DNA of 64,000 bases from Candidatus Gottesmanbacteria bacterium UBA6580 (GCA_002433895.1 DJJA01000003.1:376881-440880), one strand, 5' to 3'; positions 24,024 through 30,454 are shown, numbered from the stretch's first letter. Program-made: numbers and translations. The notes: generated from the letters alone by a model not told the origin.

Positions 24024-25406
24024 TTAGTGTGCAGCAAGATTTTTTAATTCTTCCATCCGCTTCAGAAGGGCATCTCTGTCGTTTTGTAATGTGCCTGCTT
24101 CGACTTCAGCAAACAACGCGTCTAGTACTTTGCCGATAATGGGGCCGGGTTTAGTGTCATAGAGTTTCATGACATCATGTCCGTTTACGTGTAAATCAGA
24201 AACGGCAAATGGTTGCAGTTGCACTTCTTCCAGCCGTTTTTTGTATAACTCCAGGCGCCACGATGTTTCGGTGGCTCCACCGCCGAGCCTGTCGCCAATC
24301 CGGAGTGCCAGGATATGGGGAAGATTTTCTTTGCCAACTCTTCGGATAAAACGCCGCAACGCGCTATCGGTTTGGCGTTCATCGACGCTGAACTGATGCC
24401 ACCGCACCAAGGTATACAGCAGATCAGATTGTTTTTTGGAGAGCCGTAGTCTCCGCCCGATGTCTTTTGCGATATGGGCACCTGCCACCTCGTGATTGTA
24501 AAACGTGATAAGCCCTGTTTTGTCCTGGCGGAATGTTTTGGGCTTTCCTAAATCATGGATAAGGGTGGCAAGCCGCACCACGGGGTCGGTAGACGGACAG
24601 AACTTCATCGCCATGACCGAGTGGGTGCCTACATCGTATATATGATGCCGTTTAGGGCTTTTTTGCGGAGTGGCAAATGAAGATTCCAGTTCCGGCAAAA
24701 TATAAAGCAGCAAACCGAGATTTTTTAAAACCAATATTGCGTCAGCGGCATGGGTGGCAGTCAGAATTTTAAAAAACTCATCGCGTATGCGCTCCGCCGA
24801 AATTTGTGTGAGAGAGGAGGCGTGCGAGGAGATCGCCTTTGCGGTTTCGTCTTCTATGGTAAAACCCAGCCGCGCGGCAAACCGGACTGCCCGGAGCATG
24901 CGGAGCGCGTCTTCGGCGAACCGTTCAGACGCAATGCCAACCGTGCGGATGCGTTTTTCGTTGAGATCTTTTTGTCCGCCATACGGGTCGATTAAGCTTT
25001 TGCCGTCAAACGCGATCGCGTTTATCGTAAAGTCGCGCCGGGCGAGGTCTTCTGTGAGTGTTTTGCCCCAGGAAATTTTATCCGGGTGGCGGTGATCCTC
25101 GTATCCTTCTTCGCTCCGGTATGTCGTGATTTCGTAAATATCTTCAAGCTCTTCATTTCCGTTTGGCGCGGTGGTATCCCCCTGTTTTCTGATTTTTATA
25201 CCGACCGTCCCAAAGAGGTTGTCATAAAAACTATCGGGGAAAAGCGCGAGAATTTCTTCTGGAGTTGCGTTTGTGGTGAAATCCCAGCCTTTGGTTTCCA
25301 TACCCAGGAGTAAATCCCGTACGGATCCTCCTACTGCATAGGCTTCAAATCCCGCTTTTTTCAGGATGTCGATCACTGTTACCGCTGATTGAGGAAGGCT
25401 GATCAT
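24024..25406 (-). CDS. cca: CCA-adding tRNA nucleotidyltransferase with HD domain
   Basis: GGSVRDLLLG class-II NTase head, HD motif IHDLGK; consistent with tRNA genes lacking encoded CCA. Confidence 0.85.
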   Translation of the reverse strand: MISLPQSAVTVIDILKKAGFEAYAVGGSVRDLLLGMETKGWDFTTNATPEEILALFPDSFYDNLFGTVGIKIRKQGDTTAPNGNEELEDIYEITTYRSEEGYEDHRHPDKISWGKTLTEDLARRDFTINAIAFDGKSLIDPYGGQKDLNEKRIRTVGIASERFAEDALRMLRAVRFAARLGFTIEDETAKAISSHASSLTQISAERIRDEFFKILTATHAADAILVLKNLGLLLYILPELESSFATPQKSPKRHHIYDVGTHSVMAMKFCPSTDPVVRLATLIHDLGKPKTFRQDKTGLITFYNHEVAGAHIAKDIGRRLRLSKKQSDLLYTLVRWHQFSVDERQTDSALRRFIRRVGKENLPHILALRIGDRLGGGATETSWRLELYKKRLEEVQLQPFAVSDLHVNGHDVMKLYDTKPGPIIGKVLDALFAEVEAGTLQNDRDALLKRMEELKNLAAH

Positions 25407-25424
25407 ACTGATATTATACCCCCA

Positions 25425-27098
25425 ATGGCTAAGAAGTGGCAGATAAGTAAACAGTTCACTCCGATCCGATCGGAGTTAACCGCGGAGCTGATCATAGAAG
25501 ATATCCTCAAAGACAGGGGAATTATCACCCCCGCGGAGCGGGCAGCTTTTTTGGCTCCCCCTGATCCTAGCTCGTTGCGGGCAAAAGACGTAGACATTGA
25601 TCCTAAAGCATTGGCAAAAGCGATAGCCCGTATTCAAAAAGCGATAAAGAATAAAGAATCAGTAGTGGTGTATGCCGATTATGATGCGGACGGCATTACT
25701 GCCGGCGCTATCATGTGGGAAACGCTGTGGCACATGGGAGCAAGGGTAATGCCCTACATCCCACACCGCGTGGACGAAGGGTATGGACTATCGGAAAAAG
25801 GAATAGATGCCGTACGCAGCCAATATGACCCCACGCTGATTATTACTGTGGATCACGGGATAACCGCAAAAGAGCAGGTGAAGTACGCCAAAAAACTTGG
25901 AATAGAAGTGATTATTACCGATCACCATGTGAAGCCCGATAAGATACCGGATTGCCAGATTGTGCATACGACACTCCTTTCCGGGAGCGGAGTTTCATGG
26001 TTTGTATCCAAAGAATTACTTGCGGCAAGTGGCAACGATGCCGGTCAACACGAGCGTGAGCTTACCGCGCTTGCGGCGGTAGGTACTATCGCTGATTTGT
26101 TGCCATTAACCGGTATTAACCGGTCTATTGTAAAGTTTGGGCTTGGGGTGCTCCGTAAGACAAATAGGATAGGATTTAACGCGCTTATTACAGAAGCGGG
26201 GATAGCAAAGGAAGCGATAGATACCTATACCGTGTCCCATATGCTCGCCCCGCGGCTTAACGCGATGGGGAGATTAGAACACGCGTTGGACGCGCTACGG
26301 CTGCTTTGTACAAAAGATCAGGTAAAGGCAGATTTACTGGCGCAAAAGTTAGGAACAACTAATAAAGAACGGCAACAGCTCACCATAGATACGGTGACGC
26401 ACGCAAAAGAATTGGTACCAAAAACACTTAAAAATATCATTGTTATATCACATGAATATTATAACCCGGGGGTCATTGGGTTGGTGGCCGGGAGATTGGT
26501 GGAGGAGTATTGGCGGCCATCAATAGTACTTGCCATAGCAGATGGTTTTGCCAAGGCATCTGCCCGCAGTATTCCCGGATTTAATATTGTTGAGGCAATC
26601 AGAAGTTGCAGCGATTTATTGGTAGATGTGGGGGGTCATCCGATGGCGGCAGGTTTTACGGTGGTTGCGGAAAAAATTCCGGCACTCACAAAGCGGCTGG
26701 AAGCGCTCGCGGAAAAAGAGATTGATGAAGAGATGCTCAAGCGTGTGCTGAAAATTGACGCGGAAATACCTTTTACTATGGCTTCGGAATCGCTCTGGCA
26801 GAAGATACAAAAACTGGAGCCGTTTGGATTTGGAAATTATGAGCCGCTCTTCGCGTCTATGGGGGTATTGGTAAGTGATGTCCGCATGATCGGAGCCACC
26901 CGGAAACATCTAAAACTAAAGGTGCATATGCCGGGGTCACAGCGGGTAGTCGATGCGGTGGCGTTTAATATGGCTGAACTTTACGGGAGTTTACAAGGGA
27001 GTGATTCCGTAAACATTGCCTACACCATCGATATGAATGAGTGGAACGGGAAGCGGAATTTGCAGTTAAAGATAAAAGATATAGCAATACCGCAATAA
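25425..27098 (+). CDS. recJ: Single-stranded-DNA-specific exonuclease RecJ
   Basis: DHH motifs (ADYDADGITA, ITVDHGI, ITDHH), DHHA1 domain, C-terminal OB fold; track ORF starts at 25389 overlapping cca, the Met at 25425 is more plausible. Confidence 0.85.
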   Translation: MAKKWQISKQFTPIRSELTAELIIEDILKDRGIITPAERAAFLAPPDPSSLRAKDVDIDPKALAKAIARIQKAIKNKESVVVYADYDADGITAGAIMWETLWHMGARVMPYIPHRVDEGYGLSEKGIDAVRSQYDPTLIITVDHGITAKEQVKYAKKLGIEVIITDHHVKPDKIPDCQIVHTTLLSGSGVSWFVSKELLAASGNDAGQHERELTALAAVGTIADLLPLTGINRSIVKFGLGVLRKTNRIGFNALITEAGIAKEAIDTYTVSHMLAPRLNAMGRLEHALDALRLLCTKDQVKADLLAQKLGTTNKERQQLTIDTVTHAKELVPKTLKNIIVISHEYYNPGVIGLVAGRLVEEYWRPSIVLAIADGFAKASARSIPGFNIVEAIRSCSDLLVDVGGHPMAAGFTVVAEKIPALTKRLEALAEKEIDEEMLKRVLKIDAEIPFTMASESLWQKIQKLEPFGFGNYEPLFASMGVLVSDVRMIGATRKHLKLKVHMPGSQRVVDAVAFNMAELYGSLQGSDSVNIAYTIDMNEWNGKRNLQLKIKDIAIPQ

Positions 27099-27323
27099 AC
27101 AAAAATCCCCACATTCTTACCAGCGCTTCATGCCGGAGAATATGGGGATTATGAATAATAGATTTTCCTCATACACGCTTGGATTGAAAAAGTGAATAAT
27201 TTAATGAATTCACTCCTTCAGAAAAAGCGTGTATAAGGACAAAATGTCGAAATTGGGTGTGAGACCAAAGAAAATACATGGTAAGCAGCAAGTTGCTTAG
27301 TGTTATTTCTTTGTGAGTCTCCT

Positions 27324-27371
27324 GCCCAAAAATAAAACTATGGAGACCTCTCCATAACGAGGTCTCCATAG
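27324..27371 (-). terminator. Intrinsic terminator (minus strand) after small Cys/His-rich ORF
   Basis: 11-bp perfect palindrome CTATGGAGACC/GGTCTCCATAG followed on the minus strand by UUUUAUUUUU. Confidence 0.6.
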
Positions 27372-27389
27372 AGAAGTTTGCCCCCACGC

Positions 27390-27659
27390 CTAATGTGGTT
27401 GTGTCCGCTGTCGACGCTTCGGTTCGTGGCGGTGTTCGTCGTGATGGCTATGGTCGGGGTGTCCTTTGGAACACCACGTGCAAGTATTTTCGCGACCCGG
27501 GGTCGGGGCAGAGCATCTACCACCTTTATGGTGTTTTTTGCTTCTACAGTTGCATGTTGCCACAGACGTTTGTGATTTGGGTGTCAACGCCTGGATGACT
27601 TGTAAAAACATTGATTGTTTTATGGTTACTGGAACTGAACCTGTTCGCCTCTTACTCAT
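27390..27659 (-). CDS. Small Cys/His-rich basic protein (89 aa), unknown function
   Basis: SD AGGAG 7 nt upstream of ATG; CxC...C...CxxC then HPDHSHHDEHRHE His-rich tail; intrinsic terminators on both sides; region is open in several frames, so coding status uncertain. Confidence 0.35.
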   Translation of the reverse strand: MSKRRTGSVPVTIKQSMFLQVIQALTPKSQTSVATCNCRSKKHHKGGRCSAPTPGRENTCTWCSKGHPDHSHHDEHRHEPKRRQRTQPH

Positions 27660-27775
27660 GATTGACTCCTCTTGCTAAATGACTTGCCCGGATAAAATGG
27701 TTGATCGTTAAATTTTTTCACTGCAGACTTCATAAGCAAACCTCTTTTTTGAATTTTTTCGGTGATGTTGTCGGA

Positions 27776-27815
27776 TAAGGAAAAAGACAGAAAAGGACAG
27801 GCTAATTTTCTGTCT
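27776..27815 (-). terminator. Intrinsic terminator (minus strand) after small ORF A
   Basis: AGACAGAAAA/TTTTCTGTCT 10-bp stem, 11-nt loop, U5 tail on the minus strand. Confidence 0.5.
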
Positions 27816-27865
27816 TTATCATTGTCCAAGAACTAACTCTCAAAATTGTTAAGGTGCCAAATACT

Positions 27866-28045
27866 TTACTCTTGTCCCTGTGCCGTTTGTGTGCCAGCAG
27901 CGTTGGCGCTCCCTGTGTCGGGTGCCATAGGAAATATGACCGTCACGGACTGCGCCTCGTTGGTGACGGATGCGATCATCCATGCCACCGGAGGCCGTTT
28001 CTCGGGTACTATTTCTGCCGCTAATTGTTTGTCCGTTTCGTTCAT
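27866..28045 (-). CDS. Small hypothetical protein (59 aa) with strong SD
   Basis: AAGGAG-N6-ATG ribosome binding site; MNETDKQLAAEIVPEKRPPVAWMIASV...; flanked by terminators; a Cys-rich plus-strand ORF overlaps and is the alternative. Confidence 0.35.
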   Translation of the reverse strand: MNETDKQLAAEIVPEKRPPVAWMIASVTNEAQSVTVIFPMAPDTGSANAAGTQTAQGQE

Positions 28046-28164
28046 GTATCTCCTTTGTGCTATCGCCATGTCTTGCTGTCCGCCTAATTCTGAGGCTCAC
28101 AGAACGACTATTGGCGGATTGATGGTTAGTACATTCGCTCGTCTGAACTCGTTTATTTTCTAAC

Positions 28165-28190
28165 CATCAAAAAACCCCTCTTTTGGAGGG
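28165..28190 (-). terminator. Intrinsic terminator / attenuator within the minus-strand leader
   Basis: CCCCUC-CAAAA-GAGGGG hairpin followed by UUUUUU on the minus strand, about 115 nt downstream of a consensus promoter and upstream of small ORF A. Confidence 0.55.
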
Positions 28191-28312
28191 GTTCGTGTGT
28201 TTGGTTTTAAAAAGTTTTTTAAGCTGCCATCACACGACCCCCCCGACATTTCGGAGGTTAATAAGGGTCATAAAGTGTGATTGCTGCCAAGATTTCATAG
28301 TCACAGTCAATT

Positions 28313-28341
28313 ATTATAAATAGACAACTTATCTCTTGTCA
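28313..28341 (-). promoter_or_regulatory. Consensus sigma70 promoter firing leftward (TTGACA-17-TATAAT)
   Basis: Reverse complement reads TTGACAagagataagttgtctatTTATAAT; -35 hexamer overlaps the -35 of the divergent aspS promoter. Confidence 0.5.
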
Positions 28342-28363
28342 ACCGGTAATCGGGCAAATATAA
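28335..28363 (+). promoter_or_regulatory. Sigma70 promoter for the T-box leader and aspS (TTGTCA-17-TATAAT)
   Basis: TTGTCAaccggtaatcgggcaaaTATAAT, perfect -10, 17-nt spacer. Confidence 0.55.
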
Positions 28364-28369
28364 TAAGAA

Positions 28370-28556
28370 ATGAAGTACGCGATGATGGCCTGACAAGCCG
28401 GAGTGGCCCGGGGTAACAACCGGAACGGGTATGCCCGTAATAGCTCTAATAAGATCCGCCTACGCAAAAGCTACGGCGAGATGAAATAAGGTGGTACCGC
28501 GAATTACCCGTTCGCCCTTATACTATTACTAGTAAGGAGAACGGGTTTGTTGTGTC
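28370..28556 (+). promoter_or_regulatory. T-box riboswitch leader, putative Asp specifier (GAC)
   Basis: T-box consensus AAUAAGGUGGUACCGCG at 28485-28502; terminator ACCCGUUC...GAACGGGU + UUUGUUGUGU; candidate specifier loop CCUGACAAG; directly upstream of aspS. Confidence 0.6.
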
Positions 28557-28570
28557 ATAATGATAGATAT

Positions 28571-30454
28571 ATGAGAACACTCGCGTCACAGGTATCGGCA
28601 TTAGAAGGAAAAACGGTTGTATTGCAGGGGTGGGTTCTTGCGCGGCGGGATCATGGCAAGATCATGTTCCTCGACCTCCGGGACCGTTCCGGTGTTGTGC
28701 AGCTTGTTGGAAGTAAATCATTGGGCGATGCGCACGCAGAAGATGTCATAACCGTCACAGGACTGGTGAAGAAGCGGCCAGAATCGATGGTAAATGAAAA
28801 AATTATTTCCGGTACCGTGGAAGTTGAGATACAGGAAATTTCGGTTATTTCCAAAGCCCGTGAGTTGCCGTTTCCCATAGACACTGACGGACACGAAGTA
28901 AATGAAGAAATCAGAGCCAAATACCGCTATCTGGATTTACGCCGTCCCAGGATGGCCCGTAATATCCGATTGCGGAGCAAAGTCGTCAATTTCATCCGTA
29001 ACTTTTTATCAAACCGCGATTTCGTTGAAATAGAAACGCCAGTGCTAACCAAAACGACCCCCGAAGGAGCGAGGGATTTCCTCGTGCCGTCACGTCTGCA
29101 GCCGGGAAAATTTTACGCACTTCCGCAGTCACCACAGCAGTATAAACAGCTTCTGATGGTTGCCGGATTTGAGCGGTATTTCCAGATTGCACGGTGTTTC
29201 CGTGATGAAGACCCCCGCCGTGACCGCGCGTATGGTGAGTTCACCCAGCTCGACATGGAAATGTCATTTGTGACGCAGGATGATATTTTAACGCTTACTG
29301 AGGAGATGTTTACCACCCTCATCCGCCTTATGTTTCCGGCCAAACACATTTCCCAAACTCCCTGGCCGAGGTTGTCACACCGGGAAGTCATGGAGAAGTA
29401 CGGCACTGACAAGCCGGATCTGCGAAAAGATAAAAATGATCCCGATGAATTGGCATTTAGCTGGACAGTTGATTTTCCGCTTTTTAATGAGCAAAAAGAT
29501 GATGATTTCTTTTACGGATCCGGTGGCGCAAAATTTGCGCCGAGCCACCATATGTTTACCGCACCGCATCCCGATGACATCCCGCTTCTTGATACCGATC
29601 CGCTGAAGGTGCGGGGACTGCAGCATGATTTGGTGCTGAACGGATTTGAGGTAGGTGGCGGGAGTATCCGTATCCATCAAGCGGAGGTACAAGCGAAGGT
29701 GTTTGACCTTATTGGATTTAGCGAAAAACAAAAGCAGGAGTTTTCCCACATGCTCACCGCGTTTAGTTATGGTGTGCCGCCACACGGTGGGATCGCGCCC
29801 GGCATCGACCGCCTGATGATGGCGCTTTTGGGAGAGCCGAGCGTGCGGGAGGTCATGGCATTTCCGACATCTGCGTCAGGTGGGACAAGTGTCATGGACG
29901 CGCCCAGTAACGCTTCACCCGAGCAGCTCGTTGAGCTTGGCATTTCCGTAGCAACAATGGGAAACACGAAAGAAGGAGGAGGTAAAGCGGTGTACGAGCG
30001 GATAGTCGGGGACATTAAGGCACTTAAATTGGCATTTGAGCCGTACGAACACGAAGCAGTGCGTACTTCAGAAGATGCCGCCAAAATCCGGAATACGCCA
30101 CTTTATGAAGGCGCAAAAGCCCTCGTGCTGTATGCGGATGAAAAACCGGTCATGGTAGTTGTTCCCGGTGACCGTAAGCTCGATATGAAAGCGTTTAAAT
30201 CGCAGTATCACATCCGTGACCTACGGATGGCAACACCCGCCCAGGTGGAGGAAGTGACCGGTGTTACTATCGGCGCGGTGCCGCCATTTGGACATATATT
30301 TGGCATACCTGCATACATGGACGCAGCGTTTAAGAAAAACTCGCACGTTTCATTTAATGCCGGTCTTCATACCCATTCCATACGGATGAGTGAAAAAGAT
30401 TATGAAAAGATGGCGAAGCCGACTATTGGTGAGTTTTCTAAAATACTTGAATGA
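28571..30454 (+). CDS. aspS: Aspartate--tRNA ligase (GAD-less) fused in frame to a C-terminal YbaK/ProX-type aminoacyl-tRNA deacylase domain
   Basis: N-terminal OB anticodon domain, class II motifs 1 to 3 (FRDED, GGGSIR, GIDRLMMAL), normal AspRS C-terminal SPEQLVELGISV; then about 165 extra residues with a YbaK-like order of motifs (YEHE..KALVL..VVPGDRKLDMKAF..GAVPPFG..SFNAG); ATG at 28571 preferred over the track TTG at 28547. Confidence 0.85.
   Translation: MRTLASQVSALEGKTVVLQGWVLARRDHGKIMFLDLRDRSGVVQLVGSKSLGDAHAEDVITVTGLVKKRPESMVNEKIISGTVEVEIQEISVISKARELPFPIDTDGHEVNEEIRAKYRYLDLRRPRMARNIRLRSKVVNFIRNFLSNRDFVEIETPVLTKTTPEGARDFLVPSRLQPGKFYALPQSPQQYKQLLMVAGFERYFQIARCFRDEDPRRDRAYGEFTQLDMEMSFVTQDDILTLTEEMFTTLIRLMFPAKHISQTPWPRLSHREVMEKYGTDKPDLRKDKNDPDELAFSWTVDFPLFNEQKDDDFFYGSGGAKFAPSHHMFTAPHPDDIPLLDTDPLKVRGLQHDLVLNGFEVGGGSIRIHQAEVQAKVFDLIGFSEKQKQEFSHMLTAFSYGVPPHGGIAPGIDRLMMALLGEPSVREVMAFPTSASGGTSVMDAPSNASPEQLVELGISVATMGNTKEGGGKAVYERIVGDIKALKLAFEPYEHEAVRTSEDAAKIRNTPLYEGAKALVLYADEKPVMVVVPGDRKLDMKAFKSQYHIRDLRMATPAQVEEVTGVTIGAVPPFGHIFGIPAYMDAAFKKNSHVSFNAGLHTHSIRMSEKDYEKMAKPTIGEFSKILE

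Follow-up and report, generated by a model that had tools for sequence, protein, structure and literature searches.

Transcription attenuators of the trp, his, leu, thr, pheA and ilv type (represented in Rfam by Trp_leader, RF00513, and Phe_leader, RF01859) combine a short open reading frame (ORF) with mutually exclusive 1:2, 2:3 and 3:4 RNA pairings. The terminator is located just before the controlled gene, and the terminated transcript is the default. Another group of leaders, comprising ermC/ermB, cat/cmlA, tnaC, vmlR and lmo0919-type upstream ORF attenuators, relies on a conserved peptide and not on codon repeats, and a stalled ribosome directs the RNA into an alternative fold; in the vmlR/lmo0919 type, a terminator/antiterminator pair is employed as well. 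Here, we describe a leader element on the minus strand of a 64,000-nucleotide (nt) stretch of DNA from Candidatus Gottesmanbacteria bacterium UBA6580 (GCA_002433895.1, DJJA01000003.1:376881-440880; hereafter the window, with positions counted from its first letter). The element lies between recJ and aspS, directly upstream of a small orphan gene, ORF A, and is interpreted, with a probability of roughly one half, as a ribosome-dependent, trp-type transcription attenuator of ORF A that operates without codon runs.

The locus has the general layout of the classical attenuators, but no run of codons for one amino acid is found. Its ORF extends over both strands of the 1:2 pairing, with the stop codon within segment 2 and not ahead of it; the 5' untranslated region (UTR) is very short and contains no Shine-Dalgarno (SD) sequence, and the controlled gene encodes an orphan 59-residue protein instead of a biosynthetic operon. 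The conserved peptide sequence, in place of codon repeats, is reminiscent of arrest-peptide leaders; unlike in those leaders, no resistance, transporter or catabolic gene is located downstream and no known conserved arrest motif is present. An ErmBL-like 'RNV' arrest motif was considered as a family feature and rejected, since position 17 of the peptide is N, K or T.

Leaderless attenuators with polycysteine sensory short ORFs (sORFs) are documented in mycobacteria (bioRxiv 10.1101/834739), and leader peptides have been reported in Corynebacterium (PMC3890552). As in these actinobacterial cases, the ORF described here is unannotated, is predicted to lie at the extreme 5' end of the transcript and lacks an SD sequence, and the idea that ribosome pausing remodels the downstream RNA, proposed for the actinobacterial sORFs, is also proposed here. 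The actinobacterial sORFs carry runs of Cys (or cognate amino-acid) codons, whereas the present leader ORF has no runs, and the mycobacterial sORFs unmask a ribosome-binding site where a terminator is found here.

The leader transcript and its alternative folds

Ten distinct variants of the leader were compared, from the window and from loci L086, L088, L083, L001, L098, L081, L092, L097 and L099. The elements of the leader in the window are as follows.

28337-28342, minus strand: -35 hexamer TTGACA, found by promoter scan and invariant in 10 of 10 leaders
28313-28318, minus strand: -10 hexamer TATAAT, after an 18-nt spacer, invariant in 10 of 10 variants
28230-28298, minus strand: leader ORF MKSWQQSHFMTLINLRNVGGVV, 22 codons plus UGA, with its ATG 14 nt past the -10 hexamer and no SD sequence
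28222-28288, minus strand: long imperfect hairpin of segments 1 and 2 (1:2, the anti-antiterminator), from codon 4 to 8 nt beyond the leader stop codon
28241-28256, minus strand: apical hairpin CUCCGA-AAUG-UCGGGG, nt 43-58 of the ORF
28229-28244, minus strand: segment 2, the switching strand, GGGGGGGUCGUGUGAU, with the UGA stop codon and the three sense codons that precede it
28238-28244, minus strand: run of seven G residues (G7) within segment 2
28219-28230, minus strand: mini-ORF AUG-GCA-GCU-UAA, overlapping the leader stop codon (UGAUG)
28185-28199, minus strand: segment 3, CACACGAACCCCUCC, complementary to segment 2 and doubling as the 5' strand of the terminator
28169-28194, minus strand: intrinsic terminator with a 9-base-pair (bp) stem, GAACCCCUC/GAGGGGUUU, a CAAAA loop and U6

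A preliminary description of this DNA had proposed a TTGACA-17-TATAAT promoter, a long imperfect hairpin with GACCC/GGGUC and CUCCGA-AAUG-UCGGGG helices, a CCCCUC/GAGGGG terminator followed by U6, and an alternative partner for the switching strand. The promoter indeed matches the consensus at 12 of 12 positions, with a spacer of 18 nt, not 17, and transcription is predicted to start at about 28306, ~7 nt past the -10 hexamer. The minimum free energy fold of the minus strand between 28310 and 28163 (-44.8 kcal/mol, z = -2.97, with 3 of 200 shuffled sequences folding equally well) reproduces the long hairpin (GGC.GC.AUCACAC ... GUGUGAU.GC.GCU), both inner helices and the terminator, whose stem comprises 9 bp. 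Hairpin 1:2 includes the CAC/GUG and GACCC/GGGUC helices and the apical hairpin; across eight variants that were folded, the energy of 1:2 ranges from -21.5 to -32.8 kcal/mol. The first 10 nt of the leader, AUG included, are unpaired. The terminator stem-loop occupies 28194-28172 and its U6 tract 28174-28169; ORF A starts 8-130 nt after the terminator across lineages.

The core of segment 2, GGGGUCGUGUGAUG, is invariant in the ten variants and can pair either back into the hairpin, with segment 1, or forward with CACACGAACCCC in segment 3. When nt 1-51 (the 5' half) were masked in folding, the terminator was replaced by an antiterminator in which GGGGGGGUCGUGUG (28244-28231) pairs with segment 3 (28199-28185) over 14 bp with one bulged A; the potential for this pairing is kept across all ten variants. 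The G7 run, previously placed at 28237-28243 and suspected of being prone to slippage, is present in the switching strand one base away, at 28244-28238, and is interrupted in 7 of the 10 variants (as GGAGGGG, GAGGGGG or GAAGGGG), so that slippage is not a feature of the family.

The leader ORF

The hairpin overlaps an ORF that had escaped the preliminary description. It is intact and exactly 22 codons long in 10 of 10 variants, its ATG is located 11-15 nt after the -10 hexamer in each of them, and its UGA always falls inside the invariant GGGGUCGUGUGAUG. The consensus of the encoded peptide is M[KRT]xxxxxH[FYLV]M[TA]LI[NTS]LR[NKT]V[GE]GVV. For codons 8-22, the ratio of nonsynonymous to synonymous change (pN/pS) is 0.42 in the frame of the leader ORF, compared with 3.5 and 1.65 in the other frames. 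The Leu12 codon changes from CUU to UUA through two synonymous substitutions, the codon for Arg2 is AGA, CGU or CGA among the variants, and the bulge at codon 9 (UUU, UAU, CUU or GUC) specifies a hydrophobic residue throughout (F, Y, L or V). Codon 16 is invariably CGA, the rarest Arg codon of the window (7% of Arg codons). No tandem residue repeat was found in the antitermination window of the ten leader peptides, and comparison of the peptide with Pfam and NCBIfam gave no family match.

An SD-like motif (-20 to -4) precedes 12 of the 41 large ORFs of the window, a rough count with starts taken from a mechanical ORF list, which suggests that SD-independent initiation predominates in this genome. 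The missing SD sequence is therefore no strong objection to the leader ORF. The predicted 5'UTR is ~4-9 nt long and, because the ATG lies 11-15 nt past the -10 hexamer, the mRNA is probably short-leadered and not strictly leaderless. In the lineages without a T-box upstream of aspS (see below), the distance from the -10 hexamer to the leader ATG is 11-12 nt, comparable to that of the essential gene aspS in the same lineages (9-10 nt). The mini-ORF at the leader stop codon (AUG-N6-UAA) retains its spacing in 10 of 10 variants with six variable inner bases; it may be a termination-reinitiation feature, or merely the 3' strand of the outer helix.

Conservation of the leader element

The nearest relatives of the aspartyl-tRNA synthetase (AspRS) of the window, with 81%, 70%, 66% and 62% amino-acid identity, are from metagenome bins of Patescibacteria (candidate phyla radiation, CPR), including Roizmanbacteria and Blackburnbacteria. 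A search with nhmmer located the leader element in the flanks of the closest AspRS locus, L001, and a codon-degenerate pattern scan of the JGI metagenomes identified one locus, L081. Every ORF A homologue with enough upstream sequence has the leader directly upstream, in keeping with its earlier assignment to this gene. The element was not found at more distant AspRS loci, a covariance model (R1) detected no further copies in the window or in 99 fetched loci, and a scan of viral contigs found none; the family is confined to one narrow clade. Sequence identities among the variants are given below for each element in order of transcription.

-35 hexamer: 100%
Promoter spacer (18 nt in the window): 55% on average
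-10 hexamer: 100%
5'UTR (variable length, 11-15 nt): 65%
Leader ORF ATG: 100%
Codons 2-7 (18 nt): 56% on average, 28% between clades
Codons 8-22 (45 nt): 89%
Leader UGA: 100%
Segment 3, CACACGAACCC: 98% over all pairs

Four-fold degenerate sites of AspRS provide the background: their identity between the window and L001, L083 and L097 is 0.30-0.35, which corresponds to saturation, and 0.42-0.62 between the window and closer relatives. Conservation of the leader against this saturated background indicates that the element is under strong selection. Moreover, 6/7 to 8/8 of the four-fold sites of the leader ORF are identical between clades, compared with an expectation of 0.35 (P 0.0002-0.011), so that conservation exceeds what coding requires. 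The CACAC of segment 3 lies outside the terminator stem and is nevertheless ~98% conserved, with segment 2 as its sole evident partner.

The helices were compared in an ungapped alignment of 82 columns. The terminator stem covaries between lineages, with compensatory forms CCCCUC:GAGGGG, CCCCGC:GCGGGG and CCCUCC:GGAGGG. In the hairpin, the GACCC/GGGUC helix is 100% paired and has three one-sided changes, each of which gives a G.U pair, and the apical hairpin is paired in 95% of cells with a variable loop. Apical pair 45:56 occurs as C-G, U-G and U-A, a compensatory series whose U-A form costs a Gly to Glu change in the peptide, and the outer helix is maintained in two different registers, one per clade. 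Overall, 80-88% of hairpin cells are paired, compared with at most 57% for slid controls, but double changes are limited to one or two pairs and, with ten variants and sparse changes, covariation in the hairpin does not exceed shuffle controls. The fold is thus consistent with the data but unproven. The one-sided helix changes give G.U pairs in the minus-strand RNA only, which identifies the minus strand as the functional strand. A DNA palindrome or plus-strand function was rejected on the same grounds, and the direction of the promoter agrees with this assignment.

Energetics of the switch and ribosome masking

Before the 3' strand of the terminator is available, the difference in free energy (ddG) between the 1:2 and 2:3 states is -1.7 to +7.6 kcal/mol, with a median of about +1.3 kcal/mol for the ten variants, and the energy of the 1:2 state is -22.9 to -33.1 kcal/mol in all of them. 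The three-way competition put forward in the preliminary description is borne out in so far as all of its strands are conserved and the states are near-isoenergetic at this stage. In the full transcript, 1:2 together with the terminator is favored by 13-22 kcal/mol. An attempt to exclude a riboswitch by thermodynamics failed; because 1:2 and 2:3 are near-isoenergetic, the energetics fit an attenuator and a riboswitch alike.

The effect of a translating ribosome was modeled by moving a 30-nt footprint codon by codon along the leader ORF and folding the remaining RNA. In the window and most variants, the terminator is lost only with the P-site at about codons 11-14 and is regained from codon 15-16 onward. 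The exceptions are L092, in which the terminator is not lost, and L097, in which it is lost from codon 1.

Proposed leader-peptide attenuation

The domain that might be taken for an aptamer coincides with a conserved ORF whose stop codon lies in the switching strand, which is the layout of ribosome-dependent attenuation. A leader ORF precedes the terminator, the 1:2, 2:3 and 3:4 pairings exclude one another, and the terminator is placed just before ORF A. We infer that the leader ORF is translated, that the position of the ribosome is the signal and that some cause slows the ribosome. Transcription would begin ~7 nt past the -10 hexamer, and the first AUG (28298) would open the 22-codon ORF, which crosses both strands of 1:2 and ends within GGGGUCGUGUGAUG. 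With no ribosome, 1:2 would form first, followed by terminator 3:4, and the transcript would end at 28169. A ribosome that quickly reached the stop codon would cover segment 2, and 3:4 would again form and terminate transcription. If, however, the ribosome were delayed with its P-site at about codons 8-16 (HFMTLINLR, including the CGA at codon 16), it would cover segment 1 and leave segment 2 free to pair with CACACGAACCCC of segment 3; the terminator would not form, and RNA polymerase would read into ORF A. Candidate causes of the delay are a general limitation of translation or of aminoacyl-tRNA, or a peptide-specific arrest. Since codon runs are missing, the signal would be the general translation or charging status, or such an arrest.

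Several observations weigh against this interpretation. Enriched or tandem regulatory codons are absent, with the rare Arg CGA at codon 16 the only notable codon. Translation of the leader ORF is presumed from modeling, and the predicted ~4-9-nt 5'UTR fits neither an SD-led nor a strictly leaderless start. The sequence of codons 2-7 is free to evolve (pN/pS 0.91). Across codons 8-22, the codon-position bias of variable columns is not significant (2, 4 and 5 at positions 1, 2 and 3 in eight variants), and a hand count over all ten variants gave 4, 4 and 7. Conservation at the four-fold sites of the ORF greatly exceeds that in AspRS (6/7-8/8 versus 0.35 expected), and G19E co-occurs with a compensating change in the hairpin; these two observations indicate that constraint at the RNA level dominates and could alone keep an accidental ORF open. 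At equilibrium, the antiterminator of L083, L088 and L092 displaces the terminator only partly. Finally, ORF A is not a biosynthetic gene and has no known function.

A more novel possibility, which we regard as unlikely, is that the conserved C-terminal two-thirds of the peptide (HFMTLIxLRxV[G/E]GVV) acts as a nascent-chain sensor, halting the ribosome when it encounters a specific small molecule or translation inhibitor, or that the RNA belongs to a new riboswitch class and shares its sequence with a translated ORF.

Comparison with known RNA families

At gathering thresholds, a search of the whole 64 kb against Rfam gave no match on the leader. Even at E<=10, a search of 27050-28600 identified on the leader no riboswitch or other family beyond weak, terminator-driven matches to Phe_leader (18.7 bits) and Trp_leader (15.7 bits), compared with gathering scores of 55 and 41, respectively; these matches have E-values of 4.5-6.2 and cover mainly the terminator. 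A preQ1-I-like reading of the A-rich tail AUAAAAAACU was discarded, since neither the neighboring helix nor the loop is compatible with it and no Rfam match was obtained.

Alternative explanations

The preliminary description had seen in the element a riboswitch or an RNA thermometer. No ribosome-binding site or start codon is sequestered, which makes a thermometer unlikely. As a new metabolite or ion riboswitch of the OFF type, which is unlikely in our assessment, hairpin 1:2 would be the aptamer: the ligand would lock segment 2 and lead to the terminator, and in its absence the antiterminator would arise through invasion by segment 3. The switch pairings are conserved, and the architecture is that of terminating riboswitches, with a promoter-proximal structured domain, a 3' strand (segment 2) common to hairpin and antiterminator, a terminator as the expression platform and near-isoenergetic conformers before the terminator exists. 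In addition, nucleotides are conserved beyond coding need, as seen at the four-fold sites and, in the internal loop, at the unpaired U35 and A37-U39, and G.U and compensatory changes preserve the structure. However, no riboswitch class is matched, and the supposed aptamer is itself the conserved 22-codon ORF; the riboswitch leaves this constant frame and the invariant AUG island unaccounted for. The domain is a single hairpin with two bulges on its 5' side, little conserved unpaired sequence and no complex conserved pocket; one bulge is free to vary (UUU/UAU/CUU/GUC), and three positions of the internal loop differ among the variants. Hairpin 1:2 also needs no ligand for its stability (-21.5 to -32.8 kcal/mol) and lacks a free toehold. 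The downstream gene encodes an orphan small protein with no metabolic link, and the family is restricted to one narrow clade.

Terminator/antiterminator choice can also be set by proteins, as by PyrR, TRAP and L10(L12)4. An RNA-binding protein, possibly ORF A or the neighboring ORF B as an autoregulator, might act on the bulged hairpin or on segment 3, a scheme that we find quite improbable. It would agree with the conservation of the bulged hairpin at the nucleotide level and with the constant presence of ORF A alongside the leader, ORF B being usually near. No RNA-binding domain was detected in either protein with Pfam and NCBIfam, however, ORF A is predicted to be mostly disordered apart from one beta-hairpin, and the conserved AUG and frame would go unexplained. 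Autoregulatory terminator leaders have a precedent in rplJL of B. subtilis (PMC4538822).

Alternatively, the terminated transcript of ~138 nt could be a stand-alone, possibly dual-function trans-acting small RNA (sRNA), with read-through into ORF A being incidental. The consensus promoter of its own, the strong terminator and the terminated form as thermodynamic default would suit an sRNA, and attenuator-derived trans-acting sRNAs such as rnTrpL exist (PMC6614838). We nevertheless hold this to be decidedly unlikely: the element stands directly upstream of ORF A in every lineage, sometimes 8 nt from the start codon, and a pure sRNA would have no use for complementary segments 2 and 3, a property that is conserved. 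No targets are known, and no target search was made.

It is very improbable that function resides in the 22-residue peptide, as a small protein, toxin or signal, and that the RNA structure merely stabilizes or terminates its mRNA: its C-terminal 15 residues are conserved in the ten variants (H-[FYLV]-M-[TA]-L-I-x-L-R-x-V-[GE]-G-V-V), but it is too little hydrophobic for a membrane toxin and matches no family, its synonymous sites are nearly frozen, with RNA-level constraint dominant, and this view gives no reason why segment 3, a noncoding stretch, should be conserved and complementary to the region of the stop codon.

Genomic context

The window is gene-dense bacterial DNA, in which the 1.45-kb recJ-aspS gap without a long ORF is unusual. 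The leader occupies the aspS-proximal end of this gap on the minus strand, and the order recJ, ORF B, ORF A, leader and divergent aspS is maintained in long contigs. The surrounding features are as follows.

25389-27098, plus strand: recJ, left border of the gap
27390-27659, minus strand: ORF B, 89 residues, Cys/His-rich, with its own SD sequence
27768-27830, minus strand: AU-rich 12-bp hairpin with a U-run directly after ORF A, alignable in sequence in L001 and L081
27866-28045, minus strand: ORF A, 59 residues (MNETDKQ...), with SD sequence AAGGAG at 28055-28050
28064-28170, minus strand: spacer between the terminator and ORF A, here an insert of ~108 nt with two stable hairpins (z = -3.55)
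28336-28364, plus strand: T-box/aspS promoter TTGTCA-17-TATAAT, with its -35 hexamer TTGTCA at 28336-28341
28547/28571-30454, plus strand: aspS, right border of the gap

The true start of ORF A is probably the ATG at 28045; all of its homologues begin with MNE. Two profile searches found the protein conserved in 12 clusters, all on Patescibacteria-type contigs and all unannotated. An AlphaFold2 model contains a single confident beta-hairpin (residues 22-39), the rest being of low confidence, and most of the chain is predicted to be disordered. ORF B has the invariant pattern CxC-x10-C-x10-CxxC-x3-H-x5-H and a His-rich tail, GHPDHSHHDEHRH, and probably binds metal; it is clade-restricted and unannotated, with five clusters among 5.8 billion proteins. 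Neither ORF A nor ORF B could be assigned with Pfam, NCBIfam, a profile search of the 5.8 billion proteins or AlphaFold2. A metal-sensing riboswitch, considered in view of the Cys/His-rich ORF B, found no support, as no NiCo, Mn or Mg family is matched and a terminator-like hairpin stands between ORF A and ORF B.

That AU-rich hairpin (27768-27830), for which Rfam gave only spurious miRNA-like matches, is probably a weak terminator or processing site between the two genes. The ~108-nt insert between the leader terminator and ORF A is also found in L083, L093, L098 and L099, and in a variant form in L097; the gap measures only 8-13 nt in L001, L081 and L092. The insert might be a mobile module or a secondary regulatory one. 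Between the end of recJ and the terminator of ORF B, at 27165-27245, lies a further conserved structured element, a long near-palindromic hairpin. Three of its 26 predicted pairs show compensatory changes (e.g. C-G to A-U, split 3:3) among six lineages, and Rfam gives no match; the hairpin may represent a further small RNA or a palindrome bound by a protein.

On the opposite strand, a T-box leader with a shortened stem I is located upstream of aspS (28373-28522, plus strand), the sole significant Rfam match of the region (42 bits, E = 1.4e-7, below the gathering score of 93). Seven of the 10 lineages possess this T-box and L001, L083 and L098 lack it, so it has been gained or lost inside this narrow clade. 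In these three lineages, the aspS ATG lies 9-10 nt past its TACAAT -10 hexamer, which makes aspS near-leaderless. In every lineage, the promoter of the leader and ORF A (minus strand) diverges from that of the T-box and aspS (plus strand), and their -35 hexamers share 5 bp; because of this overlap, RNA polymerase binding at the two promoters may be mutually exclusive. Sensing of Asn or Asp by the leader, suggested by the neighboring aspS, was rejected because Asn codons are not conserved and Asp codons are absent. The AspRS encoded at 28571-30454 carries a C-terminal YbaK/ProX-type editing domain (PF04073, tRNA_edit), as judged from precomputed Pfam matches of its homologues; the AspRS of L098 (517 residues) lacks this domain.

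Implications

Gene regulation in the Patescibacteria (CPR) is almost unexplored, and none of the papers that we searched reports a riboswitch or attenuator native to this group. For riboswitch discovery, the locus carries a caution: a conserved, structured, terminator-linked leader may conceal a conserved mini-ORF. The leader is a compact (~140 nt), well-delimited unit suited to heterologous testing, and it points to ORF A and the Cys/His-rich ORF B, both small proteins specific to this clade, as a regulated response. A nascent-chain sensor, if present, would switch on this small-protein response in host-dependent Patescibacteria. With either such a sensor or a riboswitch of a new class, a native riboregulator would be characterized in the phylum for the first time. 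If the leader is an attenuator, very short-leadered ORFs without SD sequences would be translated in Patescibacteria, and these ultrasmall, host-dependent bacteria would couple transcription and translation to sense their translational state.

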